DNA of 64,000 nucleotides from Gnetum montanum (lineage: Eukaryota; Plantae; Gnetophyta). Made by a program: the position numbers and the translations under genes. The stretch spans positions 928,985 through 992,984 of the forward strand of contig MNCI01000551.1 in NCBI GenBank assembly GCA_015680685.1, given 5' to 3'. The notes under the pieces were generated by a model, which saw only the letters and a list, made by a program, of their open reading frames with translations, was not told the origin of the DNA and searched no databases. Numbering within the stretch: position 1 is the first letter of the stretch; each line of letters opens with the position of its first letter. Positions 10,901 to 64,000 of this stretch are shown piece after piece.

Positions 10901-11376
10901 TGTTGGGTTTTCTTCTTGTCTTCCTTCGTGTGGTTTATGACTTCTCTTAGAATGTATCATCATTGCTCTATCAACCAATAAAAAAAAGCTCTATCTTTGC
11001 ATAGTGTGGTTCCCATTTCAAAAAAATTTATTTAAAATCCAAAAAAAAAAACAAAAAAATGAAAAAAAAAAACAAAAAAATCAATAAAAAAAAGAAGAAA
11101 AAAGAAATGATAATAATAATGGAAATTCAAAGCACACCCCATAGATACAATAATGGATTACAAGCACTAGTTATGGGGCTGGAAAGACATGTTACCCATG
11201 TGTGTGCCCCTTTAACAAAGGCTCTTCCTTCCTTATTGTCTTTTCTTCTTTTATTGGAGTGATGATTGTTTTTTGAGGTGGTTGTGGACTCATGGTGGTT
11301 GGTAGGAAGAAACACATCAATGTGAGGTTACTATTCATGGTATAGACTTGGTCTAAACTTAGATGGATAGGTATGC
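7930..11376 (+). mobile_element. Probable 3' internal region of an Athila-like element with a decayed extra ORF
   Basis: Stop-riddled Pro/Tyr/Ser-rich coding-like stretch at ~8590-10400, followed by A/T tracts and a purine-rich tract before TGAT at 11377. No pol motifs were recognised. Confidence 0.35.
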
Positions 11377-13578: not shown

Positions 13579-13589
13579 CATGGCTTGCC

Positions 13590-15104: not shown

Positions 15105-15109
<5 letters not shown>

Positions 15110-15141
<32 letters not shown>
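15110..15141. repeat. (TG)16 microsatellite
   Basis: Direct inspection. Confidence 0.95.
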
Positions 15142-15142
<1 letters not shown>

Positions 15143-19711: not shown

Positions 19712-19834
19712 TCTTTTAGGCTTAAGGAGGTCAATCTTCGAATGATCAAGTATCCTTTGTCCTTTTTCATTTATATGGATAAAATCTGCATAATCTCCGT
19801 CCCACACAACATCGCCATCGGACACAAAATAATC
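19712..19834 (-). CDS. Kir exon e (DYFVSDGDVVWDGDYADFIHINEKGQRILDHSKIDLLKPKR)
   Basis: Acceptor aaatacag|GAT and donor AGA|gtaagt, phase 0. Matches the Kir C-terminal 'DI.W...Y.D....IDY..F....P' block. The downstream terminal exon is not resolved. Confidence 0.85.
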
Positions 19835-22800
19835 CTGTATTTTGCAAAAAAAAAAAAAGATAAGATAAAACATAAATTTAACAACAGCAATAATGAATGG
19901 AATATTGATTACAGTTATGAACAAAAGCACACCATTCAAGCTTAAACACTAGCTTGCAGTTGCTAAATTTGGAGAACAATAATTCAACGCTAGAAGATTA
20001 TTCATTATTTGTTTTCCATTCAAACTGAGAGCAGACAAAAGCATTGCTAAATGTGCGTTTCATGTTTTTTTACACGGAAGAATAAGAAAGATAAATTCCG
20101 GTCACAAGCCACAAAACTTCCATACTTGGTGATTGCTTGAAATTTCTAGATGATTATTGTTTTCCAAAAAAAAACAAGATGAGTAGCCAGGTAATTGTAA
20201 GTCGGATGGTGTACAAAATCAAGCTACAATAAGAAGACTTGCGAAGTTAGTCTTCAATGAAGTTGAAAAAAGTGATTTGAAGATTCTCTGTAAAAGACTG
20301 TTTCTGAATAAAATAACCAGTTACGAGGAGTTGAAATTCTAGTGGAAGAAATAATACTTGTCTCAATGTCGGTATTTCTTACGTAATATTATTTTTAACG
20401 GACTTTTAGTTCCTTTGTTACTTAGCTACGAGATTTAAAATAACTGTCACATGTATGGCTAAAAACTAAGTTTTGCAACCATTGATCATCCATAATTAAA
20501 TTGGGGAGACAGAATAACCATTTATTTCATGAAATCCTGATCTTTAAAACATACTTTTGAAAGCTAATTTTAATTACTTGCCTACTTTCTCATTAAAATA
20601 TTGTCAAATACAAGATAATCTGAGAATTAAAAAATTCATACTTTCAACAAATACCATATACAAATCGACATACCTCCAAGTGAAATATTGATTGCATTGA
20701 TGATCTTTCTAATCCCATTACTGTTAGAGAAAAAGAGGCATCGCCTTCATCTAAGGTTTCCATTGTATGCCCATATAATGGGCTCTTTTTGTCAATGATA
20801 TGGCGTACCATAAGTCCATAACGAAGATATGACACCTGGAATGTTTGAAAACCACAAATTATTGAAGAATGCATATTTGACTGCTGAGTTGATATTAAAA
20901 AAATTGGTTTAAAAAAATTCAGACAGCTACAGACTTGTGTAATCAACACATTGACAATAATGAAACTTAGGCAAAGCGGGAAAGCTAAATAACTAATGTT
21001 AAAAATTTTCGAAAGAGAAAAACCGTGAAATCTTAAAAACAATATCAACTTGATCTAAAAAGCTATAAATGTGTAGGATTGACATACATCTTTCATGTCG
21101 CAACAGAATGCATGAATCCTAGATTGTACAAATTTCCAAGCTACTGTTTTATGTCTACGTATAATAACATTGTAGCAACCATTTTCTTTCTTTCAAGGAG
21201 CCCAGTAAATTAATATCTGTTTTAACTTATACTGGAAAATATTGTTGAACGTTAGTAAGTAAGCATAACGCAAAATATGCAAGATTATAGTGAGGGCAGA
21301 AAGGTCTTCTGAAATGATAACTCCCGCTGGAGATGTCCCAGCAATAAGTACATGACGTTTGAAATAAAAGAAATATTTTAATTTTAAAAATTACACATCT
21401 TGATGAAATATTGTAAATTTTTAAAAATTACATTAATGTCCAAAAAAAATCAGGAATGCTAAGGCAGATGTCAAGTGTCACTAGAAAAGATTGAATGAAC
21501 AATTCTCTTATTAGGAAAAGTTTGGAACTGGCAACCATCATTGGAAAGATAAAGGAAAGTAGTTTTAAATGGTTTGGTCATGTGCAAAGAAGACCAAAGA
21601 TTGCACCTTTTAAAAGATGCTGATTAATTGAATTAGACCAAATCATACCTGACATGTGAAAATAGAGAAGGATGTCTAAGATTTGGGTATTAACATTGAT
21701 TTGCCTCTTAACAGAGCTGAATAGTGGAAAATAACTCATGCAGCTGACTCAATGTAGTTGAGATAATGCTAAGATGATGATGACAATGATGATGGATGCC
21801 CAAACAATTGTTCATTGAATGACAACCTAAGTCAAATGTATCTAAATATGTGAATTTGAAACTAGCTATGACCTGCATCACTAGACCGTATTCCAGTAAT
21901 TTCTTAGATAACACTAGTAGCATTGCTAACCGTGGACCTGGAAAATTAGTATACACATTGAAAACCTTACAACCAAATCACCTATAGATGAACCTCCAAG
22001 CACTCATTAGCCAGGAGGTGTAAAATGCCTTGCAGCAGGACTCTACATCTTTACAAATAATGCCTATAGTGATGCGAAGCACAGCTCCATGCTCTGCCCT
22101 TGATGTAGCAGTGTAGCATGAATCCCTACATCAGGATGATCCTGTATCATAAGCACATTTTTACATTGGGCCCCATGTTCCAAACAATGGGTTAGCATCC
22201 AGATAGGTTGTACCCATCAAGACAATGGTGACCAAATGGCTTAGGAGATCTTACTAAAACATAGTCTCTCTAGTTTGCAAGGTTGCAGTGGCAGCATTAC
22301 AGGACACTCAGAAGTCAAGGGAACTAGGTTCAAATGATGTGAAAATGCATCACCGGCAACTGATCAAACTAAGATCCCCTGACAGGAAAAGGGCCCCTCA
22401 TATGGACATTATATTCTTTAAGAAAAAAAAGAATATTGTATATAGGTTTATGGCTAATGTGTTTAAGCACTGGAGATTTAGATAGTGTTTTATAAGGTTC
22501 ATCACCTAGAGATTCAATGCTCATCCTCCTAAAGCAGACGGTCAGTGGATGAATGAAAGCCTAACCTTTCTCAAGTGGCTGCACCCACGCTCAAACTCAA
22601 GTCTTATGACTTAAGAAACAAGTACCTTACCATCACTCCAAGTGGATCCCTTAGACATTGCTTTATGATATATGAAATTTCCATCTATCTATTTTTAAGG
22701 TTAGAAAAGGCTGTCTAAATTGGGAAAATATAATGAAAATTTTTGAATCTTTGATTTAGCAAATATCATGCACAGAACAGCAGAAAAATTTTTCCTTGAT

Positions 22801-43800: not shown

Positions 43801-46800
43801 CTTGGCTTATGACTCAATCTTGCAAACGTTTGGTCACGGGATATTAATCATGTCCTAGCGTGTCAGGAGAGCAAACCTATTTGACAGTTGGAGCATGGAC
43901 AAGTGTGCTTACTCCATCAAAGCCATCTGAGTAGGAGTATCGTCAGAGTGCATCCCTGCTACGATGTGCTATGCTGCGTAGCGTAGCACGGCGTAGCACG
44001 GCGTAGCACGGCGTAGCACGGCGTAGCACTCAAATTGCAATAATTTCTGACAAAACTTGCCACATTTTGTTGCGTCATGTTATTCATGCATCAAGGGTGA
44101 AGTGAGGCAGATGCCCTGGAGGGTTGAGTTGTTGTCAATCCGCATCTTTTGTACCCGTTTAGTTTCCTCAAGGCCTGCTACGCTGTGCAACATAGCGTAG
44201 CGTAGCAGGTTCCTGCAGTTAGAAAACTTGCCGAATTGTTTTGCTGATCCTGAACACTTTTGGCAGCTCCTAGCATGGTCCCTGGGTAGACCGTCAGCCG
44301 AGTTAAGTGTCAAGCTAGGCAAGCTAGAGGGTGTAGCAAGCATGTCAGCCCAGGAGATAAAAAATTTGTCGAACTATACAGTATACCCCCAGTGCCTCTT
44401 TCATGCAAACTGGCCTTGTGGCTGGATGCCACGTTGACTGTGCCGCAGAGGGCATTGTCTGCACGGTCCAACGTGACACCATGCTTGCGGGGACCCTTGC
44501 CCAAATTCCGAGACTGCTGAATCATGAGAATCCCGAAATTTATGGTGTTTCACCCTCAACATGGCCCTCACCGGCAATGCCCTATGCTTTAATAACCACC
44601 TGAAAGCCTTTATCTTTTTTGGAAGACGACCTTTCCAGACCTCCACCAAGCCATCCTCCAAGGATATAAACATTTGACAATCTCCTTCGGGCTTTGCCCC
44701 AATAAATCCAATAGGTCCATTGCACTAGCATGACAACACAAATTTTTCCAAAGTTGGGAGTTGTCCATATTTGCCTCCTAGCGACTATATTTCCACCGTA
44801 GTAGCTGCTCCCACAGTGTCGCCCCCTCAGTTGGCCCCAAATAGCGGTTGAGCAACTGGTGCAATCCTAACATCACCTCATCCCCGAATTGGAGTATGCC
44901 AATTCCCCTTATCGGCTTGGGTCGTGTCATTGTAGCCTAGAATACCAAATGCATCTTTCTGCCCCCTTTGGCTCCTAACCACATGAAATCCTTAACAATG
45001 CTGTCAATTTTCTGCATCACCATAGCCAGCGTTGTGGCCATGGACACCACAAACCTGGTAGTCGCCATCAAGACGGTAGTAGCAACCACCATCTTCCCTT
45101 TCGAGAGAGGAGGCGGCCAGTCCACAATGTGGTTTTCTGCTAAACCTACTCCACCATTCCCACCCAAAACTTCTTCATTTTCCAATCGAAATGGGCATGC
45201 CTAGATAAGTGTCCTGTGCAGTGCCCCATAGAATTCCCAAGGTCTGAATAATCCTAGTCTGCACCGTGCCCGCCATGTTGACGATGTGTATGACCTCACG
45301 CTGCATCCATTCTAAAGCCCATAATAGGGCCTTTACCTATGGCACTGCATCCCTACAGAAGATCATTGTGTCATCAGCATAGTGTGCTACTAGACAATGC
45401 ACCCCCACAATATTGAGCCCCTAAACCTCTTCGACAAGGCAGTCACTTGTGAACAAGTCCATCACCATGATAAAGAGGAGAGGCGACAATGGGTCCCCTT
45501 GCCTCAACCCTCTCCCCATCCCTTGAAATCCCCATAACCTCCCATCAATATCAAAAGAGTAGTGGCCACTTCTTTGCATTTGCATGCATAGGTTGACAAA
45601 TCTGGCATCAAAGCCCTTTGCCAGCATTATAGTCCAAAGCGCCGCCCAACTCACCATATCATAGGCCTTGGTGATATCAAGTTTAATACACATTCCCGAG
45701 AATTTAGCCATCTTAAGCAAGTGCAGGATCTCCTACAACAGCAAGACCTAATCTTGCAAAAGGCAACCCTTGATAAAACCAACTTGGTGTGGCCCAACCA
45801 ATTTCATCATTAATGGTGCAACCTGCCCAACTAGCATCTTGAAGAAAATCCGTAGAAGAGTATTACAAACTCCTATGGGTTGGAAGTGCCCTGGTGAGGA
45901 TGAATTAGGCACTTTGGGTAGTAGCACTACCTAGGCGTTGTTGATTTCTCTCCTCACCTGTTGCCAGCAAAGCATACTGTTAAAAGTGTCCAGCATGTTG
46001 GCCCCCAGGATGTCTTCATACTCCCTAAAAAATGCAATTGGCCATCCATCCAACCCCGAAGCCTTGTTAGGCTACATCGACTTCATGGCCCTCCGTAGCT
46101 TCTCTCGTGAGAACAAGCATAGCAAATTCAAGTTATCAATTCTCATGAGAACCTGTGGTATTGGTATTGAGATAGGCTCTGTTGCTTGCCACCTCCAAAT
46201 CTCCCCCCAAAACATCCTTAAGGCCTCCAACCCCCTCCAGCTGCTCTGTGGTCCTCCTTCACCCATACCCTTCAGTAGGTCATGGATTTTTTTCTTGTAG
46301 GCCCGATTGGTTTTTGCCGTAGCAAACAAAAAACCTTGTGTGCTTGTCCCCTTCCCTCAACTAGGAGACCCATGATCTCTACCTCCAATAGCTCTCTTCC
46401 TCCCTAAAGTTCCTATAGCAACTCTCTTTCTTCATCTTCCTAATTGTCTCCCATTTCCTAGCGCCACTAGATTTCCCGAAGTTGTTCCTGTACCTATTTC
46501 CTATATCCGTAAAAGTTGTACTTGTCTTTTGTTGCTTTGGCCTTGATGGCGAGTTTAAGGGCTTGTAGTCCATCTCTCAAAAACTACCTGGGTTCCTGCT
46601 CCCCTATATAGGCCTGCCAGAGAGTTGCAACTAGCGGTTTCAGCCAAGCTTTGTGCAGCCACGTTCTTTCAAACTGAAAAGGCTGGGGTTCCTAACACTC
46701 CTCAAACTGGATTTGGCAGAGAATGGACCAGCAATTCGAAGCCTGCCATTCTTTGCCCTCCACCTTGATGTCAAATTTGATCATGAGGCTCAAACTAACC

Positions 46801-49800
46801 CATATCTGATTGATCTGGGACTACACCTAATCCATCCCTCATCGTCTATTGCTCCATGTATATTTGCATCCCCTGATCTCTAGGTCCACCAAATCATACT
46901 GGCAGAGGAAGTCAACAAAAGCCTCGGCCCCCAAAGGGTCCATGCAATCATTCTCCGTTTTTTCCCAGCAATACAATCGCTCATTAAAGTCACCCAGCAA
47001 CATCCGTCTAGCGGAATTGGAAATGACCCCAACAACCTATCGTAATTCTTGTACCTAGGCATCCCAGTCTTGCACCCCGTAAACATTTGTGAGCCAAAAA
47101 TCAACTTGTCGCAGGTAAACTATCTAACTCCAATCGGAGTCGTCCACATATCATACAAGAATTCTAGCCAGAATGGCTAGCCCTCTTGCACAACCCCTAC
47201 TTGGCACCAAGTGCATGCTCCATCCCTCCCAATGCAACAACTGCCACTTTGCCGTTTATAGCTTTGTCTCCTGTAAGCATACCACATTACATCCTGCATC
47301 CCAAACCATCATTTTCAAGGTATTCCTTTTGTACAGGGTACCCTGGCCCCTACAATTCTAGGTGAGGACTTTCATGGGGATGTAGACACTCATCTGTGGT
47401 ACACCTCCTGGAGTGTTCGCTGCATCCCCAAATCTAGATCCAATTGCATGGATTTCTTAACTCTTTATGTTGTGTTAATGGCTGAAACAAGTATATTTTG
47501 CGTAGCATTAATGATTCTTTTAAAATATACACACACATGCATTGCTAAGAAATTTGACCAATGAACCAAGTGAGAGGAACCTGACCTATGAATTAGGGAT
47601 GTTATGTATTTCATGGTTGTATTATTTTTAAATATTGGACATGTATAATGTTATGTATGTTTTTGATGCACTATTCCTCATAGTATCATCAATTAATAGA
47701 ATATAAGTATCCCCTCTACGGCTATAGAAAGGTTACATGATGACCTTTCAAAGCATCACAAGATAATGCAATAATAAGCCATGAACATAAAATGAAAAAA
47801 GTTTACATCAATAATGGCTTAAAAGAGAAGGTGTTTACCTTGGTTTTATGTCCTAGACTTGCACCTTATCATGTTTTCATTTGGAAATTTTTTTTTTCCA
47901 ATGAAGAGGTAAACCCAGTTCTATCATGGCCAGGGCACAACCAGAAAGAAATTAAAGCACGATAAGGAAAAAAAAACATTTGGAGACAACTGCAATATCC
48001 AAGAGAACATGATTCAAACATACCAATCCTAAACAATATAACAACAGGGGGAAAAAAGAAAAAAGAAATAGAGAACCTCTGCACTTCGGCCTGTAGATTG
48101 AGGATCATCATTCTTCGTAGCAGCAACAAACTAGGTCAAGAGGGCCTCATGCACAAAACAGATGGTGGGAAGGTTTTATCAACAAATACGAAAATGTTAC
48201 AACTATATCAATATGATATATTAGCGATGGGAACAAGCCTTTGACTTTCAGACATTCCCACGCTAATTGAACTCTTGACCATTGGTTAAGAGCATTAACA
48301 AACCAGAAAGATGGATATTGGCCCCTATTATCTGATTAAAATAGTTCCAAAAATCATTAGTAGTTGTGCAAGTAAATAAAGCATGATGTATAGCCTCCTT
48401 TTCTTGATGACACTGCCCACAAATATCATTGTTGATGATGCCTTTTTTAAAAAGGACAGCTTTGACATGTAACATGTTGTGAAGGCTTGTACTCATGAAG
48501 GTGCGATGCTTGGGGACAACGACCTTGCACAACCATGTGCTTTTCACCGAGTCCTTTGGATTTTGATGAAGAGTAGAATAAGCATTTTGCCCTTTGTAAG
48601 TTGATTGATTTGCCCATAAAATTTTATCATTATTAAGTTGAATAAAGTTGGAAAACGAAGACCAAGCTTGTTCAAAATTGTGCCAAGTAGCTAAGGCAAG
48701 AGTTACAATAGGAGCATTATGGAACATGAGCATTATGGAACATTAAACCACCGTGTAAATATTTAGCTTTCAAGATGCGGACACAAGGCTTGCCAAATTC
48801 CCATGTTTAAAAATTCTTATGCCTCATCCACCTTCACCAATATCTCTGGAAACTTCCATTCCAATTAATAGAATGGAAATTTCTTGCACAAGTAAATCAA
48901 AGAAAGGACCATTCATGTTTTTCCAAATTATTTAATAGAGATGCAGGAGCTTTATGAAAAGAAAAAAGAGGAAATATAAGGGACTTGCTTGTAACACTGA
49001 TTTTAAAATCTCTTTCTTTGCATCTTATGACATAATTTAGAAGAAGGAATACTGCTAGAAATGAAGCACAACTACATATTGATTGCTAGTAAAATTTAGA
49101 AATTACATGTTGCTAACACAAAACTAAGGAATAGATATGGATATTACGTTTGAGTACATTTTATAATTGTCAATTTTCTATTATGCCAAATCAAGCAGAA
49201 TTGAACTTGAGAACCAGCAAAATCAGAATTCTAAAATGTTAAAAGTTGTGGATGTGGGAATTGAACCTGCAACGTGTTAGAACATATTTTTAATAGTGAT
49301 AAAAAAAAGAATTGAATTCATCACTTGGCAGCATGAACAAGGTTTTAAAAAAAGAGAAAAAAACTAATTTCTAGAAAGAATCAATTACAACACATAACCC
49401 ATTCTCTTTTGAATTCCCCTAGTAGTTATAAAGGGACAGAAGATATGGGAGAATGAAAAAAGAAAAGAGAGTGAGAGAGAAGGTTGTGCAGGTGGAGAGA
49501 AGAGAACAACCACAAGGGGTTGTGGCTGAACAAAATATGAACATTAACAAAAGAAGACTGATTACTACAAAAGCAAGTAAAATGAAAGAAAATCAAAGCT
49601 GAGCAACAATCCAGTATATTAATAAATTCATCTTGGTAAACAAGAAATGTGAGCAAAAATACAAGAGGATCCTTCTCTTGTGTTGTTTGATAATGGACAG
49701 CAATGAATGATTATCTTAATATCTCTTGTCGAATTGCTTTGGCATTGCTATCTGTTTATGATTCTATCAACTTTAATAAAATTTGTTGTTGAGATCTTGG

Positions 49801-52800
49801 ATTGCTGAATCCTTGTTTTTGGTGGATCCCTCCGCCCATCCTCAACACTCACAGGCTCAAATGACTTGGATGGGAGTTGTTTTTATAACAAAGAAATACC
49901 CATACTGATTTGGGGTTTTTATGACATAAATATTCACCAACATGGGCCAAGGATACCGAATACGAGGATTGTTACTGCTAGCAAAAAGTGAGAGCATCCT
50001 TAAGCCTGTATCTATTTTTTGAATTTTTGAAATCTAAAAAATCATTGAATTCTTGGTTTCTTACATGAATCGGTTAGATGATCCCTCTTGAATGCATAAT
50101 GCTTGAATTTGAATCTTGAGTCTTATGTGTATGCCTTCTCAAGTATAATTCTCTTGTCTTTCTATGAGCACAACGGAGAGAGGGAAATCTAGGGTTTAAA
50201 TTTACAGTTGTTATAATAGTGTTTTATCTATTCACTGTTGTTCAAAAAGTAGATAGTTTGATTAAATTTTAGTGGTGTGCCTTATATTCTTTGAGCTTAA
50301 AAGACTTACATTGAGATGATTTTGTTTCGTGAGTGTTGATGGAAACAAATAAAATATTATTTTACCACTGAATAGATTTGAAATTACTCATTTATATGTT
50401 TCTTATGGCCAACTATTTGGTTGCACAGATTTGTTAATGAGCAACGTCAGTTATATGTTATGGCTTAAGGAAATCAAATTTTGATTTTTAAATCAGAAAA
50501 ATTACAGAACTGTACACCATATCAGAGCAATCTTGCATAGATATTTACCATAACTATTTGTTTTTCATATTTATCTTTGATTTCAGAAAATCAGCATTCA
50601 TTGAAACTAAATCTAAATACAGTGTTTTGTGCCACCAAGACATGATTCATTTTACTTAACCTTTCTTTCATTGCTTTTGGTATGTTAGAGAATCAGAAAT
50701 TTATGCTTGAGGAGCATTCGAATTTATTCTAGGGTTCTGCTCAAAACTTCCGGTTACTTTTGATTAGAAAGTCAGAATTCATCTATTCATTAGCTTAAGC
50801 AAAATAAAAGGCAACAAAGCTGATACTACATCTTTATTAGTAGCTAGAGTATATGTGAAGTTACATGTACTAAATATTAGCTAAAACTATCAAATTATTT
50901 GTTATCATTATTTATTGTGGTTTATTAATTATTGCTGGCAACAGTTACTTTGATTTTTCCCTTAATAGTTTCAATAATTTGATTTGTGAATTAGTGTCTC
51001 ATATTATTCTTGTGCTGGCTGGTCAGCTGTTTTGCTTAAACAAGCTTATTAATGTGCATTATCTAGTTTCTGATTTTCCTTTTTCCTGAATCATGAACAT
51101 TGTATCATTGGTAATGATAATGTGAATAAATGTAAAGATGGTGAGCGCATAACTCATTTCAGTTCTCTGGTAGCCAGCAAGATTCCATTTCATTGCTTAA
51201 ATCTGCCATTCTTATGTGGCATCAAGCATCGAGGCACTATGGTTTACAATAAGATTGAATATTTTGATTTTTCCCTAGACTTCGCTAAACTGTCTTTATT
51301 GAGTTTTGTCTCTTATGATGGCTGCGTCTTTTAGTTTACATCTGATGTCTATTCCAGGATAGGAGACTTCTGACCTTGGCTTGATCCTCTGCTCTAAAAC
51401 TCCTGATCCCTTGGGATATATGTGATGTGAAAAAATGTAGATATGGCCCCACAGCTGCTATATTGCTCTATTTTTTATTTTGCAATTCATTAGGTTCATG
51501 AATAATGTGTTTTCATACTATTTGACTCTCTATATGACTGATTATGTTTTTCTGTGCATAATTTAAGATTGCTAAGGTGAAATGGTTGGGTTATCTGCTT
51601 GTAGCTGAACTAGAAGGCTATGAATTTGATTCCAAGTTTCCTTGTCTTTACATTTGTATTATACCTTGGATGCTTAGTGTATATTGAGAGATATCAATCA
51701 TCATATTAGCATTCTCCTCCTGCTATCCTTGAGCTGCTATTTGGTTTATATAATCTTCTCTATTTACTTTTTATGCTGAATTGATTGTTGTTGATGCTGA
51801 TCCAAATGCAAATTAAATTTCTAATAATTGATTAACTGTTTTTAAGAAAATCATCCTTGCACTTTCAGGCAACATTTTGAAGGCATCGGGTGCTAGCTCC
51901 TGCTCCCTAAAATTGGGTGTTACATCAATGAATCCACTATTTTACATAATGCTTCAATTATTTTACAACTTTGTAAAGGAAATACGTTTTCAATCTGTAA
52001 GATAGTGAGGTATTAAAGTACTGTTGTACAATTGCATATCAGTAGCAAATAATCAATCTAGTAAAACCAAAAGTAAAAATAACAGAAAGCAACATCATTA
52101 ACTGTTTGAGCTATTGCAGAACACAGATGTATACTGCAACTGCTGAACTGTAAGCAGCACACTACTCTTAGTCACAACTCACAAGCATTTACAGGTAACT
52201 AACATTTGAACGAAACTACAATATTGCTAAACCAGAAACTTACTTCTGATCTGACAAGTTCTAAATCTTGGGTAGAGCAAAACGTTGACCCATTTGGAAG
52301 TGCAACAAATATCCTACATGTCAAGCATATCTTTGCATCAACCAGCTCACAAGGTGTGGGACCTCCAAGTACCAGCCTAATAGCCAGCACCCTACAAGCA
52401 AAATAACTCTTTTGAGGAATATTCCGACTCAGAGAAAAAAATTCTCCACCTGATCACTATTTTTTTTTTGAAAAGTATAACATATAAATCATTATTTAAT
52501 GTGCACTTTAAGTGCTTTCTATTTCACAATTGAGCAGTTATGCTCTTTATCTAAAATTTGTTTTCCAACTGAATAGCATGCAATCACAATACTGGCATCC
52601 TAACATATGCATGTATGCAGTTGGTAGCCTTAAACAATGCGAACAAGTTCATTCCTCGTTTTAATTCTGGTTCACCAGCAGAACACACAGGTGCAAGTAA
52701 AGAATTGTGCCTTCAAAAAGCAATGAAGAATGCATATGTGCCCTGCCAGCTATAAACTTTTAATTACCTTAGCTTTTCATCACCAGCCTCTCCTGTATTT

Positions 52801-55800
52801 GTATTAACATCATCAACTTTGATGATAGCCTTCTTAGCACATCTGATAGGTTGTGATGGTTGTGACATGCGTGCAAAAACTGGAAGAGTGAAGCCACAGT
52901 TTTTTGAGACTAATTGTAAATAACATGCAGATATAATAAATTAAATTTAGTTAACAGGTATGATCGTTAGAGATATTTCTTATATCTTGAAACATAAGAT
53001 CCTTCCAGAGATTCTATTAACACTATTTTGTATAACTTCATGAAAAACGTGCAAATTGGATGCTTTTGCAGTGAATTCAAAAAGGTGGATAAAGGCGTGT
53101 TTGGTAATATGCCAAAAAAAATGAAATATATCAATAAGCATGACAATACATTTCAGATGTCCAGGTGAGGGATCAGACTAAACCTTTTACTCAAAACAGA
53201 TGTTTCATTATTGGGCCAGCAAAACATAATTCTATTTGTCCATGTAACATAAATGTTAGATACGATGACACACATCAAACACTTGTGCAAAATATGTCAT
53301 TTATTTGAAAAAGAAAACAGCAAAATAAATTATATCAAGTAAGCATTGCCAAGAGGAAACTAGCTATTAGAAGTAAAAATGAAACCATCTAAAATTCACT
53401 ACTCTGCTTTTTAAAAAAAAAAAAACTATTTCAAATAAATCGTTAGCTTCATTACATATAAATTATATCTAAAAATAATACATAAGATTGGCATAACTAT
53501 TGTCAGAAAATATGGTTTAATGTGAGACCTACAGCAATATATTTAAGTTTTATTATGTGTAAGATCTAAAGTTCAAGTCTTGGTAGTAGCTGGGTAGTAA
53601 TATACCAGTTCTATGCCTTTAAAAACACATTAATGGTTTTCTTCAAGAGTCGTTATCTCTTAAAAATGCAAAATCACTTGTAATGGGTTCTTGGGCCCAA
53701 CTATTATACTATTAAAGAAGGCTTCAACTTTTGAGTTAATGTGATGACTATTTGGATGTTCAACTAAGCAAGACCATGGCCTGCTGAAGGCTTGAGGATT
53801 TATCTTGCGTTCATGAATCATGAATGTATGCATGATGTTCTTGAAAACCTCAATTTAAAAAGATGAATTCCCAGAGTTTGCTGAATTGCGCCTGAAATTA
53901 AGCTTGAAATTTCCAAATTTCTCCCGTTACTATTTTTTGATTCTCTTCACCATTTTCTCTGAATAAGTATCTAAAAAATAAAAAGCTCACAGTGTATACT
54001 TTAATGTTATGGAGTTTGCATTTAAATTGGTGTTAGCATTTTAGAGAAACAAATCCCGTCATAGAGGCTGAAAATCATGGAATTGAGGACAGCTTGCAAG
54101 CAAATATTGGAAAACGCATCTCTCTTAAAGCATTTATCCATATGTAGCATATGAATATTCAATAGAAAGCTCTGGCTGCCTATTTTGCAATGCAAAAAAA
54201 AAAATCAGATCAATCACAGCAAGAGATTGACCTTGTGGTCCAAAAGACCATCCAAGATGTTTATAAGTGACAATCATCCAGTAAACCATAAGGATCCTCT
54301 CATGGAATTGTAGGGGACAAGGTATGCTTCAGTTGTTTAGGAATGGCAGCAATGGATTCTTGTTGGGGATTTCAATCAAAGGCTCTATCCATGGGAGAAG
54401 TTGGATGGTAGTTCTCAGGTGCCACCATGAGCAGAAGATTTCCTAACATTCCTGGAGGATCACAACCTAGTGAATATCAATATCCATGGTTGTCAATTCA
54501 CCTAGAGCAATTGGCCACAGAGACAGGAGAGGGTTATGACAAAGATTGATTAGGTGTGGGTCAGCTCGTAGATCCTTCTGACAAAGGAGGTTATGGCAAA
54601 AGGGCATGAACGACTGGCATCTGATCATTGCTCCATTCTCTGTTGTGTTGGTGAAACCACCCAAGGGGTGGTTCCTTTTCGTTTTGAGCATTACTGGATT
54701 CACAAGCCTTGGCTAAGGCCTTTGGTCAAGAATATTTGGGGGGCCTACACGAAGAATGTAGACCCTCAGGAGTTTTTGAAGCAAGGACTGTATCACCTCA
54801 AACAAGAGTTGAGGGCATAGATTGTGGCAGATAAATATTCATTTGTCAGGGCATAGATTGTGGCAGATAAATATTCATTTTGGACAATACGGGGCGAATT
54901 CCTGCACTATCCTTCAAAAATTCAAGCTCAGCAGGAGGCAGGAAAGGATTTGACCAAAATGGAAGGCGTTGTTTTGATACAGGAGTTAAATAAGGACACA
55001 GAGGCATATTGGAGGTAGCAGGGTGGACAAAGGTGGTTGAAGGATGGTGACAGGAATACACAGTTCTTCTTTGCAATGGCCAATTCTGCAAATCAGGCTA
55101 AGAAGATTCAGTCTTATTGTCCAAGGTCAAGAAGTTAATGATCAGCAAGGGGTGGCTAATGCTCTTCTTAAGTTTTGGTCAGGAATTTGGGGGGAAAAGG
55201 CTGTGCTTCCTCTTTCTATTCATGTTCAGCAGGTTCTGACCGAGGACGACAGTCAGAAGCTTTTAGTGCCTTTCTCACAACAGGAGTTCGAGGAGGCTCT
55301 GGATTCGATGAAGCCAGGCCGAGTGCTTGGGCTAGATGGCTGGCCTATGGAATTCTTTAAAGCGTTCACTAATATTCTAGGAGAGAACCTACTGAACACG
55401 TTTAACAAGATGCTAAGATGGAAACAGGTGCACAAGGAAATTAATTGTTCACAAATTATAATGATACCAAAGTCTAATTGCTCAATTGACCCATCACAGT
55501 TTAGACCGATTGGGGTTTGCAACTCCCTATTACACCTTTTTACGAAAATGTTGGTGGGGCAACTGCACCCTCTTATGCCGAGATTGGTGAGTTCTGACTA
55601 GGCAGGTTTCATTCGAGGTAGACGCATCCAAGATCAGATTCTGCTAATGCAAGAAGTAATGCACTCACTAAGACTTGTTAAATACCTAGGAATGTGCCTC
55701 AAGCTGGATATTTCGAAGGCCTATGATATTGTTGCTTGGGAGGCATTGCAAGAGATTATGCTGAGAAAAGGGTTCTGCCAAGCTCTGCATTAAGATTCAG

Positions 55801-58800
55801 GCTTCAGGGGCTTTCTCCCTTAATCTTGAAGGGAAATTATGGGGGTTTGCCTCCCTAGGAAGGGGGTTAAGGCAGGGAGATCCACTGTCCCCCTATTTGT
55901 TTATCCTGATCATGGACACCATGCAAACATATTGAGAAACCAAGGGGGTGAGGGGGTTGGAGATTGCAGGTACCTATGCTTGATGAGTTGTCATGGTGAG
56001 GTACCCAGCAAGTCCCACATATGGTCAAACACTATGCCGATGATACCATGCTATTCTCTTAGGTGGCTTTGCCGCAGTCTTTGGCAATTAATTGGGCACT
56101 GCAGCAAATGGGCGGGGGAGATTGGTCTGGAAGTTAATAGGGATAAGTCAACGATTCATATGCAACACATAGAAGCCCAAGTCAAGGGGTTGATTATCCA
56201 GCAATTAGGGATTCTACCAAGGGTACAGAGTGACTTGTACTTGGGTCTTCCTCTATACGATTGGCACTAGGAGAAGGTTTTGGAGGGACTTATACAACGG
56301 CTTCAAAAACATATTCATCATTGGACGCGCCATTTGCTCACCAAGGTGGGTAGGGCGTTACTTGCTACAATGGTGTTGTTGGCAATGGCTAGGTATGTGG
56401 TTGCAGTGGCCTCACCTCCAACTAGTTTCATTGAGCGCATTAACCAAATTGTTCAAAATTTTACATGGTCTGGAGGTAAGGGTGGGAAACGACTACACTT
56501 GGCTAAATGGGATGTGGTGGCCCGGCCAAGGGGTGTAGTCAGCCTGGGGGTTGCCATGTTTCAGGACCTTATCGATATGGGATACCATAAACTCGTGAAT
56601 CAAATTACAAGGCTGTGTCATCATCAAGCACAATGGGTTAGCATAATTGATGGAAAGTATCATAGATGGGAGGTGGGGGCTGAAGTTTCGCATATCTGGA
56701 AGAAAATTTGTGAGCATGCTTGAAAAATGATTTAGTGGGACTTGTTGGGTACCTCACCATGACAGTTCATCAAGCATAGGTACCCAAACGTGGGTGGTTG
56801 GAAGGCATTATAGAGAGGTAAGTTGTTGGAAAAGACAAAAATGTTCATTTGGCTGATAAAACATCTCACCTTACCAGTTTGAGCGGTGTTGCTGTGGTGG
56901 GGGGTTAATGTGTCCAACATGTGTCCCCTTTGCATGGCAACGAGGGAGATGATCGCCCACTTTATATCCAATTGTACTTTTACATGTTGAGTTTTTCAGT
57001 CTGCAAATTTCTGACCAAGTTTGAATCTAACGGGCGACAAGAAAGCGGTGGCAATTTTTTGCACACTATGGAAGGCACAAAATTGTCGAATTTCACAAGA
57101 TCTACCTTTGCCACCACCAGTGCACATTGCAATGCAAGGTAGCCGTTTGTAGGCCAAAGCACAAGTCACCATGGGGGTAAAGCCAACCTTTGAGCCAACA
57201 AGCAATGAGTACAAGGCTAATCCTATGCTATGCAGTCTTATTACCCAGGTTGGGTGGGCAAAGCTCCTTCCCCTATTGCAAGGGGAGCCGAACTTGGAAG
57301 ATGAATCATTTTTTATGAATTGGCTAGGGGAGCTCACCTTGTTCAAGGGGGGTGAGAATTCTACTGACAGAAGATAATATTGCACGGCTTTTAGGGGTGC
57401 TGGTGGATGGTGCGATGGTTCTTGTGTGGGGGCACGGGTTGCAAGATGCAACCACGTTTTTCCCAAGGCTAATGCCCAAACCGAGTGGGCAAGTTTTAAA
57501 GTCGATGTTGCTTGAGCTGTGGTAGGACATAGTGGAGGTGGTTGAGCAATTGTTTGTGCAATCCAACAATGTTTCAAAGTTGCAAGACTTGCACTTCTCA
57601 TTTCTACAGTGCATGTAGACAAGTGCTCAAGTTAATCTACCAAAATATTTTTTGGATGTGCTCAAGAGGCAACACCGGGGATGTCACTCGGGCCTAATTT
57701 TGGCCTTGTGGCATGCTTCAGGGACGAGGGTTACGTAGCCTGATGCAAGCCCGACTATTCAAAGGGTTTATGAGCACCAGCGCTCATGGTGTGAGGTGCC
57801 ACTCGTGGTTGATCTATCAAGTGATTCAAAGGATGGGGCCTCTAGGGCCTGCTTGGAGGAGATGGCCTTGGATATGTTAGGGGGCGTTGCTAGTCCAAGT
57901 CATAAGAGTCCATCCCCAATGCAGAGGGAGGGGGAGGAGGAGGAAGAAGAGCTTGCAAGGGATGGTGGGCTAAGGATTGAGCTGGAGAATGCTGCGCTGA
58001 CCAAGCCTCAGGAGGCTTAGTCAACGGGAGCTCACGAGGGAGGGGGGAAGGTTTCTCATTCTACAAGGGTGGAGACTCTTCTTGTTCAAGTGGCAGTGGA
58101 GGCACAAGAAGTGGAAAGGGCTATCTGGCTGCGTCGCTAGGGTGAACGGAAGATAGATTTTAGGAGGCAACTAGAGGAGGTGATTTGGGAAGAACAACGA
58201 CGACATGCTCTAGCTAAAGCCATGGCTAGAGATGTGCTAGAGGTCAAGCTACGGGAGACTATGAGGAATCAGCTCCAACAAGAGGCATGGCTTCGTGAAT
58301 TGCATGGGAAGGAGAAATAGGAGAAACACGCCAAGGAAGAAGAGGAGGCTACATAGATTCAACGTCAACTGGATTGTGCCCATGAGCAAGGTGTGCATAT
58401 GTGGTTAAGGCAGGGACACTACCCTTACATGGTGCTAGACATTGGGCGCAATACTATGTGGCATGCACTCAAAAGACATATCAAACTTAAAGGGTTTGAT
58501 CTCCACCCAAATGGAAAAGGGACAGTTAAGGAACGTGCCAAAAAGGTGGAGGCGTTCAAGTCATTCCAAAAGGCTACTACATTTGTAGATTTGGAAAAAC
58601 ATAGGGATGTGCTAGATCTCATACATGCCCAAGAGGGGGCTTTTTGCACCTACACTCAACTACCCAATCGATTATAGGTGGTGTTGGGGTTGCGGGGAGG
58701 TGATGGAGGTGGTTCTTTTGATTTTTGTTTGTTTGATGTTCTAACGTCCACCCCTGTGGGGACGAAGTCTTTTTGGTTTTGTTGTTGTTGGTTTCTAGTG

Positions 58801-61800
58801 GCTAATTCTATTGCAAAGGGTTTATGAGGGCACATGAGTTGCTCTTTCTTGTGGGTGTTGTTGGGAGGTCTGGGGACTTGGTGGGTCAGCTCTTTTCCTC
58901 TAGCCCTTGTTTTGAGTGGTTCTGAGGCGAGTTGGGGGGTGTGGGTCAAATTCTCTGGCTCCAAGTTTAACTTGTGGATGTGATGTACATAATTTTACTA
59001 TTTTCTAATATAATCCCAAATTTTTTCGAAAAAAAATTGAGATATTAATAATGCAATTAGGGGTGTCCAAAACAGCTAAAACTAAAATTGGAGTTTCTAC
59101 AATAACTTTTCTATCCAAGATCTCCCATGTACCATGTCCATTTTTCATGTGCAAGTAATCATTAGAAGGTCCTTCCTATATCAACTCTTCAACCTTTATT
59201 CTCAAACAAAAGGCCTCAAAATCTTGACACCGTCTTTACCATAATAGCACATTCCTAACCTCAATTTATAGCTTTTAATCCTACTATTTTTCAGTTTTCT
59301 CTGCCAGCCAACATACTCTTTCTAGTTTGTTTTTAGTTCATTCAAATATTCAAAATTTCTGTCCGTCCAAATTTAAAAGGTCACATGATCTAGCACTGTG
59401 CTCCAATTTTTATTAGTACATCATTTCTACCAATCCTTATGCAAATTACTACCAAAATCTTTCTATAATGTTGGTTTGTCTTTACCCAAACTTTATGCCA
59501 GATTTGACCAATTGTAGGGAATTCATTTCATTTTTATTTCTTTTAAAATATCATCTTTCCTTCACCTTTGGTAATCACCTTTTACTTGGATGTATTTCAT
59601 CCAAACAGACATGATCAATTTCTTGGGAGCCTTAGGTTTTACGTATCCGACCATGCATGATGGTATTTTATCACCTTTAATACTTCTTCTGTAGCAATAT
59701 TGCAACTACATGATCTTCAAATATGCTCACATCTTGTTCTTTTTTGGGGAATTGGCACAGGATTCTAAGACACCGTAGGTTCTTCTGTAATTATATGTAG
59801 GTTTTTCAATACCATCAAACTGAGAAGGATTCCTGAAAATTTGCATTTCATGGTCTCTTAAGGAGAAAGACATTTTGTTTTGCCAATCACTACTGAAGTG
59901 CAGTGAATTTTTAGTTCATCGTATTAGCAATCCTGTAAGCCAAAATCTTTGAAAAGCAAAGAAAAATATATTATTTTTTAAAAAATCAAAGTATATTAAT
60001 TAAAATAGGAACCACAAGCACCTTGATTGGATCATCCAGATAAGTCAGGACAAGCCATCTAGTTTTCAAGGACTCGGTCATTTCTTTTAAAGTTAATTCC
60101 AACGTACACTGAAGCCTTACCATCTTGGTATGTCTATCTACACAATATCATATATCTAAATAGTCAATGCAGATTAGAATAATTAAAAATTAACAGTAAG
60201 TTAAATTTATACCTATGCCTCACTCCTCTATCACGCAAAATACTATGGTATACTTAGCACTGTTTATCCTACAACATATGTAATTGCCCATAGAAGAAAA
60301 CCTGTGGGATGGACAGCATTGATTATAAAGGATATAACCTTGTAAAAAGAATATGAAATGAAATGAAACCTTATTATATCCAAAGACCCATAGGATCTAT
60401 TGGATAGATATTACATTTTCATGAAAAATAGAAATAGACTCTACAAATTGACCAAACACCAATGAGGCATCAAAAACAAATCATATAGGTTTTTTGTTGT
60501 AACATTTTAACTCTATCTCAAATGGGTAGTATACCACAAGAAAGAAATACATGTGACTCATCTTCAAGGGCTCCTGATTTGCGCAACCTACAAATGTGCT
60601 CTTCTCGGGGGAGTTGAATCCATCTTCCACTTCCAATTCTAAGATGATGAGAACTTAAGCAAAGCTTGCTGATAACATTCTGATAATTGATGGCAATGGC
60701 AGCTGAGAGATAGTGAGCTTCTACATCTAGTTTATTAGATCCAATGTGAAGTAAATAAAATTGTCTCTTGCCTTCCACATTAGTCCACATCCATGTTAAA
60801 ACCTTTTGTTTAACTAGTTGGTGAATATGCTTAGGATTTTGTTGTATGTCCTCCCACGAGATATTCCATTTTCTCAACCATTGCATCCCCTAAAAATACC
60901 AAGCATGGTCTCATGAATCCTTCAAAATTACTTTAGAGAATTTGTCCTACCTTGAGATATGCAAGCTATGAGTGTATGTAATAAATTGACACAAGGCTTC
61001 TACTTCTAAAGGTAATAAATTATATTCACATAATAACATTGAGTAAGGTGTGGTTATTACCAAAGGCAAAGGTGAGTGGTCTGGCTGCCACCTTGCCAAC
61101 CCAAGGGCTTTCAAAGCACATGCAAACCCCATGCCAAAAACTTGCATGTGGTTCTTACTAGGGTGTATGCTGCAATTTCAGTGAGATTGTCATGAGCAAG
61201 AGCAGATTTTGTTTTGATTTAGTTATTTTCCTTTTCTATACAGTTGTCACTTGCCCAAGTGCCACACATGTCACCAAAGCAATTATTATAAAAAGATCAA
61301 AATCTGTGGTCACCCATCTGTTGCAAAAGAAAATTTTTAGTAATTTAATGATTATAGTGGTAAAATTATTTATATCCACACTCCCCTTCCATTTCAACCC
61401 TGGTTAAAAATATTGCAGGTTAAAAGTTGCAAATTTTTAAATTATTATTTTCTTTAATGAAGGAAAAGACATGCTAATAAAGCTCATACTCAAATCATTG
61501 TTTTTGGTTCCTGAACTTGGAATTTGTATAATACAAAAAATATGTCCAATATGCATGTCAATTAAATAAACATATTCAGAAACCAACCACATTCCTCGAT
61601 ATAGAATAGAAACCAATGCAGGAGGAATTTGTAAAATCCATATGTTTGTTCCAAAACGGGTTCATGAATAGAAATAATATTTTCTTAGCTCACCAGCTCC
61701 ACTTAGAAACACAAAGAGAAACTGTGCCAAGAGTGTATTTAAATTTGCCACAAGGAGGCAATATGGTGAGACAGCAACGACTGGAGATCCACCAAAAGTT

Positions 61801-61815
61801 GTAGAAAGAGACAAC
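19712..61815 (-). CDS. Inward-rectifier (Kir/KirBac-like, IRK family) channel gene, partial; 5 exons in window, N-terminus not found here
   Basis: Spliced product xLSLSTTFGGSPVVAVSPYCLLVANLNTLLAQFLFVFLSGAVFARMSQPSQPIRCAKKAII...VLAIRL...QDLELVRSEVSYLRYGLMVRHIIDKKSPLYG...GLERSSMQSIFHLEDY...VVWDGDYADFI...LDHSKIDLLKP. All introns are GT-AG and phase-compatible, and there are no stops in 222 codons. Confidence 0.9.
20674..20835 (-). CDS. Kir exon d (VSYLRYGLMVRHIIDKKSPLYG...IFHLE)
   Basis: ttccag|GTG and GAG|gtatgt, 162 nt, phase 0/0. Contains the Kir hallmark H.ID..SPL.G and the G-loop region. Confidence 0.92.
21440..21795 (+). mobile_element. RTE-clade LINE 3' fragment
   Basis: IGKIKESSFKWFGHVQRRP motif followed by a GATGATGA-type tail. 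Confidence 0.7.
25472..27657 (-). repeat. 3' LTR (2186 bp)
   Basis: Direct repeat of 42337-44552. Minus-strand termini are TG...TA. Confidence 0.93.
27658..27673 (-). promoter_or_regulatory. Polypurine tract
   Basis: Minus strand CAAAGAGGGGCCAT immediately precedes the 3' LTR. Confidence 0.75.
29110..29352. repeat. Tandem array of ~30-bp TAGTTTAAGGTC-type units downstream of integrase
   Basis: About 8 degenerate units. The same core occurs at 32327-32470 and 37646-37920. Confidence 0.8.
29396..32322 (-). pseudogene. pol: N-truncated RT, RNase H, additional (archaeal-type) RNase H, integrase
   Basis: ICIDFQDLNKA..KDDFPLP, SFMDGFLGYNQI, MPFGLKN, *VDDI, YLATSD, HFDGAS..TNNVAEYE..QGDAQLV, VTDNGPQF, YYPQANGQVE and WEGPF, with stops and frameshifts. 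Confidence 0.93.
32327..32470. repeat. TAGTTTAAGGTC tandem array at the RT truncation point
   Basis: Three to four ~41-bp units abut the truncated RT N-terminus. Confidence 0.75.
32625..32632 (+). promoter_or_regulatory. TATA box of the antisense gene
   Basis: GGCTATAAATAGGGG lies ~130 bp upstream of the ATG at 32764. Confidence 0.65.
32764..37468 (+). pseudogene. Antisense, multi-exon (~8) retrotransposon cargo gene: NIF/FCP1-like HAD domain, plant-transposon-protein-like domain, acidic and coiled-coil regions
   Basis: Donors at 32884 (gtaagt), 34308 (gtgagt), 34655 (gtatgt), 35792 (gtaagt), ~36113 (gtgagt) and ~36409 (gtacgt), mostly with matching pyrimidine-AG acceptors (two appear mutated). 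Exon 33855-34307 reads PVLIVLEVVGVLC...GARDFLEFLLRHFSVIVWS...NTLYIARH...FQNPPGT. Stops are mostly single transitions. Confidence 0.75.
37646..37920. repeat. TAGTTTAAGGCCATTTCGGGCC tandem array (26-29 bp units)
   Basis: About 8 units between the antisense gene's 3' end and the gag-PR stop. Confidence 0.85.
38190..41651 (-). pseudogene. gag-protease of the Tat element
   Basis: LPQFTKYNGEGDPNAHL...FAMSLTGKALDWY (retrotransposon gag), FCVYHQLCGHNTDYCLALK, and VHVDDGAATNVI...FNLILGR (protease). Confidence 0.9.
42316..42332 (-). promoter_or_regulatory. PBS-like sequence
   Basis: Minus strand (GTTTT)TGGCACTAGGAGGGCC directly follows the 5' LTR and resembles Tat-lineage PBSs. Confidence 0.6.
42337..44552 (-). 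repeat. 5' LTR (2216 bp)
   Basis: Direct repeat of 25472-27657, with an expanded (GCGTAGCACG)n array at ~43981-44030. Confidence 0.93.
48250..48920 (-). mobile_element. L1 LINE 3' fragment (zf-RVT)
   Basis: WLCKVVVPKHRTF...CGQCHQEKEAIHHALFTC...FW. Confidence 0.75.
52244..52391 (-). CDS. Kir exon c (VLAIRLVLGG...QDLELVRSE)
   Basis: cttgtag|G GTG and GAA|gtaagt, 148 nt, phase 2/0. DLELVRSE corresponds to KirBac DLKLVRNE. Confidence 0.9.
52768..52879 (-). CDS. Kir exon b (FARMSQPSQPIRCAKKAIIK...EKL)
   Basis: cttccag|TT and AG|gtaatt, 112 nt, phase 1/2. FARxxxP is the post-TM2 C-linker of Kir channels. Confidence 0.9.
54200..59036 (+). mobile_element. L1-type LINE related to the 23875-47459 copy, with an internal EN deletion and a long 3' extension
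   Basis: RILSWNCRGQG at ~54290, then ASDHC, PFRFEHYW, GLDGWPMEFFK, KLDISKAYD, LRQGDPLSP, YADD, WSGGKGGKRLHL and zf-RVT. A-tail at ~59029-59036. Confidence 0.88.
60430..61150 (-). mobile_element. Non-LTR retrotransposon C-terminal fragment (RTEX/L2-like)
   Basis: KLCLSSHHLRIGSGRW..LPREEHIC...EDESHVFLSC motif. Confidence 0.7.
61694..61815 (-). CDS. Kir exon a: pore helix end, filter (TTFGGS) and TM2
   Basis: ctagcag|G TTG and GCTG|gtgagc, 122 nt, phase 2/1. The hydrophobic helix ends SGA and joins V-FARM in exon b. Confidence 0.88.
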
Positions 61816-62235
61816 CTGCTAGGACAATTCAATACATAAAAATTTAACATGATATATAAGATCATTTCAGATGCGCAAATAGCAAGTTACAAAAGCAATA
61901 ATGAAGAAATGAAATCATGAATAAGATCCAATCATGACTTAAGATGCTTTGAAAAGTTTAATAGACTTGTTTTTTGGATTCACAAAATTTGGCAAGTTGT
62001 TCAATTCAAAACTGTTTTTTTTTTTCAGGTCTTATACAAACAACTAATATTCAGGCTTATCATGCTTCTCACAATTTTTTTGAAAAATTATTCAAGAACA
62101 ATTAAAAAATAAAAAAAAAATCCTAACTCTTTAGGACATGAATGAGTACAAATCTACCAAATGTCAATGATAAAAATAAAACAGTCCAAAGCGTGTAGGG
62201 CTATACAGACTTGAACCTTGGTAAAACAGAATAAT

Positions 62236-62920
62236 CCTCCTCCTCCTCCTAGCCTTATCCCAATTACATGCATCAGCAATATTTCAACCATTCACTTCTA
62301 TCAAGAGTCAAATAAGCATTAATGCACAAATCTTAGATATCTTTTGTTAAGCTTGCAAGCATAGAGGTGAATGGCAAAAAAAGAGCTCATGTAGCCAACC
62401 TCATTCTGTTGGAACAAGGTCAGGATGATGATGCTGCTACTTGCAAACCAAGCATATTTACGTCTACCTCTTTATTGTTTCCCCTCAACTTTAATAAAAA
62501 AACATCTTCGAACAAGTATATTATCTAGTCTTCTTAGCACAACCAAACTATCTCAGACAACTTTTCTTAATATTCTTCTCATCTATGGGCGCTACCCCCA
62601 AACTTCACCTAATAAGAGAGGAGTTAGAATCAATCTTTCCTGCTGACACCCAACACTCACCTTAACATTTACACTGCTGCCACATGCACACATTGAATCT
62701 AATGCTTTTTGATAGGTCAACATTCTACACCATAAAGAATCACATGTCTAATAGCAATTTTGTAAAACTCTCCCTTCAACCTAGCAAGGAGTCTTCTATC
62801 ACACAGCACACCACTAGCTTCCCACCATTTCATTTATTCTGATTCAATTACTTTTTTATCAATTATTTTTAATCTAACCATCCATTTGAACAAGTGACCC
62901 CAAGTATTTGAATTCCTTAA
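62236..62920 (-). mobile_element. Decayed RTE-clade LINE 3' fragment containing a short opposite-strand RTE-type tail (~62340-62440)
   Basis: Minus-strand FKYLGS- and WFG-like remnants with a (GGA)n tail. The short plus-strand piece ends GATGATGATG. Confidence 0.5.
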
Positions 62921-63499
62921 TCGAAGTGTTTTTACTTAATGACTTGAGCTTTTTTAAGAACCTAATATGCACTTATTTCATTGATATTCCATGATTAAGG
63001 ATCTTTACTTTAAGAAATACTCATATGGCTTTACAGTAAATTTGATCACTCATCAAATTCAATATTCAGTCTTGGAAACTGAGAGAGCTCAAGGAGTGGT
63101 ATGGGAGAATCTTCTGAAGGTCTGCACACTTCGGGCCCATTGAGTGACCTATTCAATCCTGAAACTCCAGGTTTTAGTGCTTTGAGAGGCATCCCTAGGC
63201 ATGAAGAGAAACAGAACAAACATTTTGTTGCAAGATGAAACCATGTAGACACAGCAAAGGCTTGGTCATGGTTCCTCTAAACCTTGATTAGGGAAAAAAG
63301 GAATCACAGAGGAAGGACAAAAATCCTAACCCTACAACCTCAAACAATGGATTCAAGATGGGTGGATCATGGATTGCCAACACACTGCAGTGGTATCCAG
63401 ATTTTCAGGCACTACACACACACTAGCAAGCATTCTGGCAGAGAATGAGGTGGTCCAACAGGTTGGAAAAGACTTTCAAACCACCAAATCAAAGGAAGT

Positions 63500-64000
63500 G
63501 ATCAGTATCACACCTAATTAGATTGTCCAAAGGTAGGCACAAAGGTATTAGCAAACACTCATCAACCTATTCTCTAGGAAGGTGCCTACTCTAATGCATT
63601 TCATGGTGGGTGCATGGAAAACAGCCTTGAAACGCACTGAACATCAACCCTCTAAAAATCCTAGGGCAGGATTTGGATTTTCTAATCAAGAAATTAATGA
63701 ATGAGAATTTAAGGTATCAGACACCTAAACCTAATCTCCTCATTGAAGAAAATATTTTCTCATTTGATTATAATGAAACTATGCGTGAGGTTCTATCTGT
63801 AGGTCCATGGCTGCTTGAAAATCAGCTCTTATTCTTAGAGATGATCTTCAGGTCTCTCCAGCAGCTGCCAAAATGCAAGATGGTATATCAAGTCAGTTCC
63901 ACTTTAGATCAGGATCCTTAGCACAAAGAAGGTTTTATGGCCCTTAACAAGATATTTGAAAACTGATAGTCGTGGACAACCCCAAAGCTACCAAGTCCTG
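63500..64000 (+). mobile_element. L1 ORF1 (DUF4283-like) fragment
   Basis: ENIFSFDY...VLSVGPWLLENQLLFL resembles the GPW motif of plant L1 ORF1. Confidence 0.6.

Follow-up and report, generated by a model that had tools for sequence, protein, structure and literature searches.

The question raised by one stretch of DNA of the gnetophyte Gnetum montanum (assembly GCA_015680685.1, contig MNCI01000551.1, positions 928,985 to 992,984; 64,000 nucleotides, referred to here as the window) is what kind of channel would be formed by a protein with the fold of an inward rectifier K+ channel (Kir) and a selectivity filter that departs from the K+ signature. On the minus strand, the exon at 61815-61694 (exon A) encodes the peptide LSLSTTFGGSPVVAVSPYC, followed by the hydrophobic second transmembrane helix (TM2), the end of the pore helix, the filter and TM2 being carried by this one exon. 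The filter codons (61785..61799, minus strand) read T-F-G-G-S in place of T-x-G-Y/F-G, and neither the Tyr/Phe nor the last Gly of this signature is found in any of 50 relatives. The initial annotation had pointed to this non-canonical filter ahead of TM2, which is indeed present on the minus strand and spliced. The gene is structurally a Kir that stands outside the channels bearing the K+ signature; it is less singular than first thought, since it belongs to a family and has precedents, yet more solid.

The register of the pore was fixed through a moss protein, P0013, which is 88% identical over exon A and matches KirBac3.1 when compared by phmmer with the PDB (E 7.7e-13), the alignment running ungapped from the pore helix to the FARxxxP linker. 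In this register TFGGS falls on TIGYG, Ser (61809..61811, minus strand) on the pore-helix Gln, the following Leu on the Thr after that Gln and, within TM2, Ala (61725..61727, minus strand) on the hinge Gly and Phe on the bundle-crossing Tyr. The same register is shared by all 16 rows with a canonical filter among 140 aligned, P0217 carrying the Glu of the KirBac pore helix at the position of the Ser; the three substitutions originally proposed (TVGYG to TFGGS, pore-helix acid to Ser and hinge Gly to Ala) had thus been placed correctly.

For structure models, the closest relative, P0003, was used as a stand-in. The AlphaFold2 model of its core (mean predicted local distance difference test score, pLDDT, 67; predicted template modelling score 0.45) finds its best match in KirBac3.1 (Foldseek E 7e-17; Z 17.5, root-mean-square deviation 4.8, 275 residues aligned), and shows two membrane helices flanking a pore helix and loop, the first membrane helix (TM1) of the window gene lying outside the window. 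The IRK families are also indicated by the ESM Atlas, both by features and by structure. A cytoplasmic Kir (IRK_C) domain follows TM2, as seen from an IRK_C match in one of the downstream exons (exon D) and from the fold match over the whole core, and phmmer of P0013 finds a single Kir stretch. When the membrane part of P0003 was modelled in four copies, the score was 0.57 and that of the best of three controls 0.00, a result possibly due to memory of solved Kir structures; the threshold applied was attained by 21 of 30 solved pairs and by none of 23 single chains. Agreement of contacts over these runs was at least 83% and pLDDT at least 67, and residues S135 and F139 contact the opposite copy in the model, as expected for a central axis. 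The gene is a single-domain Kir-fold subunit with a true cytoplasmic Kir domain, and the ungapped alignment with KirBac3.1 and the fold match of P0003 bear out the earlier assignment to this fold.

Conservation was counted over 50 rows, window gene included, which range from liverworts to conifers and were chosen solely by identity in the cytoplasmic domain, some of these relatives having first been found with exon A as query. The filter is composed of Thr (48 rows; Ser in 2), Phe (48; Tyr in 2), Gly (49; Ser in 1), Gly (50) and Ser (36; Ala in 14), followed by Pro in all 50. The pore-helix Ser and the Leu that takes the place of the KirBac Thr are likewise found in 50 of 50, the pore-lining F131, S135 and F139 of TM2 are invariant, and no acidic residue occurs in these rows in the filter or cavity of clade A, to which the window gene belongs. 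Pore helix and filter together reach a conservation of 0.96, compared with 0.82 for the core, and rank tenth among 303 alignment windows; the window gene departs from two highly conserved columns, neither of them in the pore. As judged from the alignment, the rewritten TFGGS loop is the fixed state of the whole family and one of the best conserved stretches of the protein, instead of the peculiarity of one gene for which it had been taken. The test set beforehand, GYG in all orthologues, gave the contrary outcome, with Gly at the Tyr position in 50/50 relatives and Ser or Ala at that of the last Gly. As to the hinge, the exchange of Gly for Ala holds for the window gene and fails as a trait defining the family (41 Ala, 7 Gly and 2 Ser). 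The sole change of the filter Thr among the 50 rows is that of two clade A proteins of Marchantia, P0074 and P0075, which read S-Y-G-G-S and have Ile in the pore helix.

Five exons of the gene were located in the window, all on the minus strand and with AG/GT ends throughout. Exon A (61694..61815) is 78-90% identical to the 50 relatives; exon B (52768..52879) carries the bundle-crossing Phe, the FARMSQP linker and the start of the cytoplasmic Kir domain, which is continued by exon C (52244..52391) and exon D (20674..20835) and ends in exon E (19712..19834), the last being found by tblastn with 80% identity to relatives. When joined, they give 222 open codons, and their frames score between 46 and 105 bits with the family profile, the best among five shuffles of the window scoring 12.8. 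The match of exon D to Pfam IRK_C is weak (E 0.0088, below the family cut-off), this cut-off being reached by 2 of 11 relatives, so that most members score under it. Upstream of exon A, in the 2.2 kb up to the window end (61816-64000), neither tblastn nor the family profile found a further exon, and the N-terminal half with TM1 is therefore placed beyond the window edge; by the same means no last exon was found in 1-19711.

Splicing was followed in four public runs compared with positions 52100-62000, three of them as contigs (X1, X2 and X4, RNA by guess) and one as raw reads (X8, RNA by its species label). Across exons A and B, contigs X1, X2 and X4 show 0, 1 and 0 mismatched letters, respectively; the A-B and B-C joints lie at the predicted sites in all three and are the same in the X8 reads (4 and 6 reads), that is, in four of four runs. 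Moreover, a loose end of X1 at 52242 leads from exon C on to sequence of exon D, spanning the intron of 31 kb between them, and a second one runs from 61815 directly on into an exon lying upstream, which ends in FLYA; the 1926 letters that X1 carries ahead of exon A correspond in length to the N-terminal part of a single-domain relative together with its leader. Exon A is real and spliced.

The initial annotation had also described a NAGNAG acceptor ahead of exon A, able to add a residue to the pore helix. The TAGCAG is there in the DNA (61816..61821, minus strand), and the lengthening of the pore helix is what did not stand: exon A starts at 61815, after the downstream CAG, in 3/3 contigs, this AG being the sole one seen used, and a residue inserted at the exon start occurs in 0/130 proteins with the motif. 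Use of the upstream TAG would insert one residue, Arg as read from the loose end of X1, and since contigs drop rare forms, splicing at this site may occur at low frequency. In genomic read-through frames of other plants (P0054, P0056, P0058, P0059 and P0060), LSLSTTFGG is likewise directly preceded by Arg, an indication that distant relatives have an intron in the position of the one ahead of exon A. Intron-containing contigs or reads of X1, X4 and X8 over 52362-53361 are about 5-7% off the window, whereas the spliced contigs match the exons nearly letter for letter; this divergence would be accounted for by an additional copy, or a homoeologue, in which the intron is retained.

The introns harbour several remnants of mobile elements. 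In the C-D intron there is an old long terminal repeat (LTR) retrotransposon, whose direct repeats of about 2.2 kb each (25471-27657 and 42336-44552) are 89-94% alike and 16.9 kb apart, with remnants of gag, reverse transcriptase and RNase H between them on the minus strand. Remnants resembling long interspersed nuclear elements (LINE) are indicated by a zf-RVT match at 48266-48742 and, by eye, by plus-strand frames resembling reverse transcriptase at about 54500-56700. In addition, 60375-61051, in the A-B intron, is a diverse repeat with coverage far above that of the exons in 4/4 runs.

The family was delimited by searches with exon A, exon D and the core profile, which yielded 50 of 73 candidates, 53 of 59 and 79 of 7994 scored, respectively; a profile search gave 952 representatives at E <=0.001, 150 of which were listed. 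The named matches belong to mosses, liverworts, lycophytes, ferns, Taxus, Cryptomeria and a genome with gene ids in Gb_, a prefix which we take to be that of Ginkgo, as well as to the algae Closterium, Spirogloea, Klebsormidium and Chlorokybus; the Marchantia genes Mp1g10960 and Mp4g12110 are among the profile matches. No angiosperm appears among the named matches listed (the best 150 of the 952 profile representatives, and the searches with exon A, exon D and the core profile), and the family was likely lost in flowering plants. In a FastTree phylogeny of 140 rows and 311 columns, limited to proteins spanning the core, with an arbitrary root among the canonical rows and weak deep nodes, the window gene is nested among gymnosperm proteins on a longer branch (0.15), a position that would suit a gnetophyte. 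Outside the Kir domain, a basic amphipathic helix, presumably similar to a calmodulin site, lies some 60 residues before it in 47 of the 49 long clade A proteins, and most non-gymnosperm members end in a STSFTRA motif, which the nearest relatives of the window gene do not have.

A sister clade (B, 48 proteins) has the filter S-T-G-L-Q/E-P, one residue shorter, and none of its members has a GYG filter. Its species are shared with clade A, with Klebsormidium and Spirogloea at one end of the range and ferns and the Gb_ genome at the other, and the two clades co-occur in Physcomitrium, Marchantia, Selaginella and Adiantum. Many N-termini of clade B show, by eye, a basic stretch poor in acidic residues that leads to a conserved A-G-L-G-R-like junction, and look like plastid transit peptides, so that a chloroplast channel is possible for this clade; in clade A, also by eye, no plastid-like transit peptide is apparent. 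An apolipoprotein-like helical repeat region precedes the Kir domain in clade B (P0053, P0076-P0117). Furthermore, a third group has filters such as TFGGT and TFNGT, and farther relatives (from a chlorarachniophyte, an MMETSP transcriptome and others) have T-L-G-x-S/A filters like those of cyclic nucleotide-gated (CNG) channels (cf. TIGET; PMC3082925). Four short KirBac-like proteins (P0205, P0220, P0221 and P0156) with odd filters (TGLGS, TFGLS and PGIEG) are placed in the tree between the canonical KirBacs and the algal group. Searches by short conserved words, which would miss distant KirBacs, gave 16 prokaryotic pattern matches and 63 in viral contigs, none of them confirmed; no close relative was found in prokaryotes or viruses.

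As for function, the reading that we favour, at about an even chance and by analogy, is that of a homotetrameric, poorly selective cation channel comparable with NaK and CNG channels. The subunit is predicted to assemble as a homotetramer through which monovalent cations would pass with little or no preference for K+. With Thr-x-Gly retained, both ion sites on the inner side of the filter would persist; the outer two would be abolished by the exchange of Tyr for Gly and of Gly for Ser, and by the absence of the pore-helix acid and the next Thr (Leu in 50/50). Poor selectivity would follow from the number of sites in line, since a filter does not select for K+ unless it has all four, and NaK and its CNG mimics, with two or three, form non-selective pores (PMC3082925). 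NirBac1.1 and 1.2, with a Kir fold, altered loops and tetramer-sized oligomers, let Na+, K+ and Rb+ pass alike (PMC4607889). The gate would be formed by the invariant bundle-crossing Phe, moved by the cytoplasmic Kir domain. In strong rectifiers the cavity carries an acidic residue at a position where this family has an invariant Phe, and rectification by polyamines would be weak. Finally, the basic amphipathic helix, if it acts as a calmodulin site, would confer control by Ca2+.

Several points weigh against this interpretation. Loss of GYG does not force non-selectivity, because TbIRK, with a GGYVG filter, keeps a K+/Na+ preference of about 7 (PMC5429665), and the invariant Gly at the Tyr position (50/50) suggests a defined geometry, not a loose pore. 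The models lack filter geometry and were made of P0003, which is 86% identical to the window exons, and the window does not reach the N-terminal half of the gene. No calmodulin-binding peptide was found by phmmer of the whole of P0013 against the PDB at E <=1, no profile search having been run.

TbIRK also gives substance to the idea that the protein is an inward rectifier that still prefers K+ by means of another filter design, which we regard as unlikely. In TbIRK, whose filter is GGYVG, pK/pNa is about 7 and selectivity is spoiled when a single Gly is replaced by Ala (PMC5429665), and here both filter glycines are near-invariant (49/50 and 50/50); nevertheless, Tyr, the pore-helix acid and the last Gly are all gone, the last filter position varies between Ser and Ala (Thr in farther relatives), high K+ selectivity follows the four-site rule (PMC3082925), and the NirBacs are non-selective (PMC4607889). 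It is doubtful, too, that the protein fails to conduct alone, be it as a silent subunit, a modulatory one or a sensor on a Kir scaffold. Mutants of Kir filters can be non-conducting, 43 of the 50 rows lack Gly at the hinge, the cavity Phe is invariant, and clade B, with its odd filter, is a potential partner in the same species. However, no GYG-bearing plant Kir to be modulated was found (0/69 proteins in clade A and 0/48 in clade B; 150 of the 952 profile matches listed), clades A and B may not meet, since by eye plastid-like transit peptides begin many clade B proteins and apparently none of clade A, the pore loop is constrained above the core mean, and the homotetramer model of P0003 scored well above its control, with the caveat on memory given above.

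A permeant other than small monovalent cations, such as Ca2+, NH4+, protons or a small solute, seems very unlikely: a Gly-Gly-Ser loop with no bulky side chain could be wide, and it is fixed across land plants, but clade A has no acidic residue in filter or cavity, and NirBac1.2 did not pass Ca2+ (PMC4607889). The initial annotation had also considered a tandem Kir of which this would be the second, degenerate repeat; that reading, like a decaying copy, can hardly be credited. The gene's own upstream exons lie outside the window and its branch is somewhat long (0.15); on the other side, a second FARxxxP, or TxG[YF]G anywhere, occurs in 0/69 clade A proteins, P0013 has one Kir stretch, and full-length relatives have one Kir domain after a low-complexity N-terminus. 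The codons are open and spliced, the two departures from conserved columns spare the pore, and the letters of X1 ahead of exon A fit, in number, the N-terminus and leader of a single-domain protein. With a filter conserved family-wide and no second motif in clade A, both the tandem and the decay readings were rejected.

A broader picture can be drawn tentatively, with somewhat less than an even chance of being right. Before the colonization of land, streptophytes would already have possessed true Kir-fold channels of two or more types in which the filter is rewritten, one with TFGGS and likely controlled by Ca2+/calmodulin, another with STGLQP and likely in plastids; algae through conifers would have retained both, and flowering plants would have lost them. 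Such channels would constitute an overlooked class of plant non-selective cation channels whose filter, lacking aromatic and acidic residues and having two glycines, would have no chemical counterpart among those solved, and would form part of a wider radiation of GYG-less Kir proteins in algae and protists. A family found from charophyte algae to conifers and apparently absent in angiosperms would be a new candidate for the unassigned cation currents of these plants.

The link to Kir channels is already present in automatic annotation, UniRef labelling many members as 'Inward rectifier potassium channel C-terminal domain' proteins. Literature searches, including gene ids and filter motifs and conducted mostly without subscription journals and without supplements, found no paper on a plant GYG-less Kir family; a term search of the accessible text of the bryophyte and lycophyte K+-transporter inventory (PMC3410407) gave 0 occurrences of 'Kir', and the available part of PMC4958633 holds nothing relevant to a plant Kir-like family. 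A filter without GYG evades signature-based screens. The plant protein KCO3 shares the 'Kir-like' name only, being a member of the TPK family (PMC8619664), whereas the present family matches IRK/IRK_C and KirBac and has a cytoplasmic Kir domain.

With KirBac3.1 and KirBac1.1 (PDB 1xl4 and 1p7b) and the animal Kir channels (Pfam IRK PF01007 and IRK_C PF17655), the plant family has in common the slide helix, two membrane helices, pore helix, FARxxxP linker and beta-sandwich cytoplasmic domain, with an ungapped pore. It differs from them in the exchange of TIGYG for TFGGS, of the pore-helix Gln/Glu for Ser and of the hinge Gly mostly for Ala, in its long and variable N-terminus and in an identity of about 19%. 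GYG-less Kir channels as such are already known, from NirBac and TbIRK. NirBac1.1, 1.2 and 2.1 likewise combine the Kir fold with a non-canonical pore loop, whose length is kept in NirBac2.1 (TTGTD), but they are set apart by their description as prokaryotic, found in few strains and variable in the loop between close relatives, in contrast to a plant loop fixed across land plants (PMC4607889); they are about 35% identical to KirBac1.1, compared with 20-22% to KirBac1.1 chains for the plant family, whose gene bears introns. TbIRK, of Trypanosoma brucei, is likened by its Kir fold, as a eukaryotic member without the signature and with two adjacent filter glycines, and sits on an organelle, the acidocalcisome; its GGYVG, however, retains the Tyr, and its preference for K+ is about 7-fold (PMC5429665). 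NaK and CNG channels, although of other channel families, share the conserved Thr-x-Gly, the changed outer half of the filter and the pattern T-x-G-x-S/T-P, with an acidic residue after the Gly where clade A has a second Gly (PMC3082925). Since loop length and register are unchanged and the outer residues alone differ, the plant family offers a natural test of the four-in-line-site rule.

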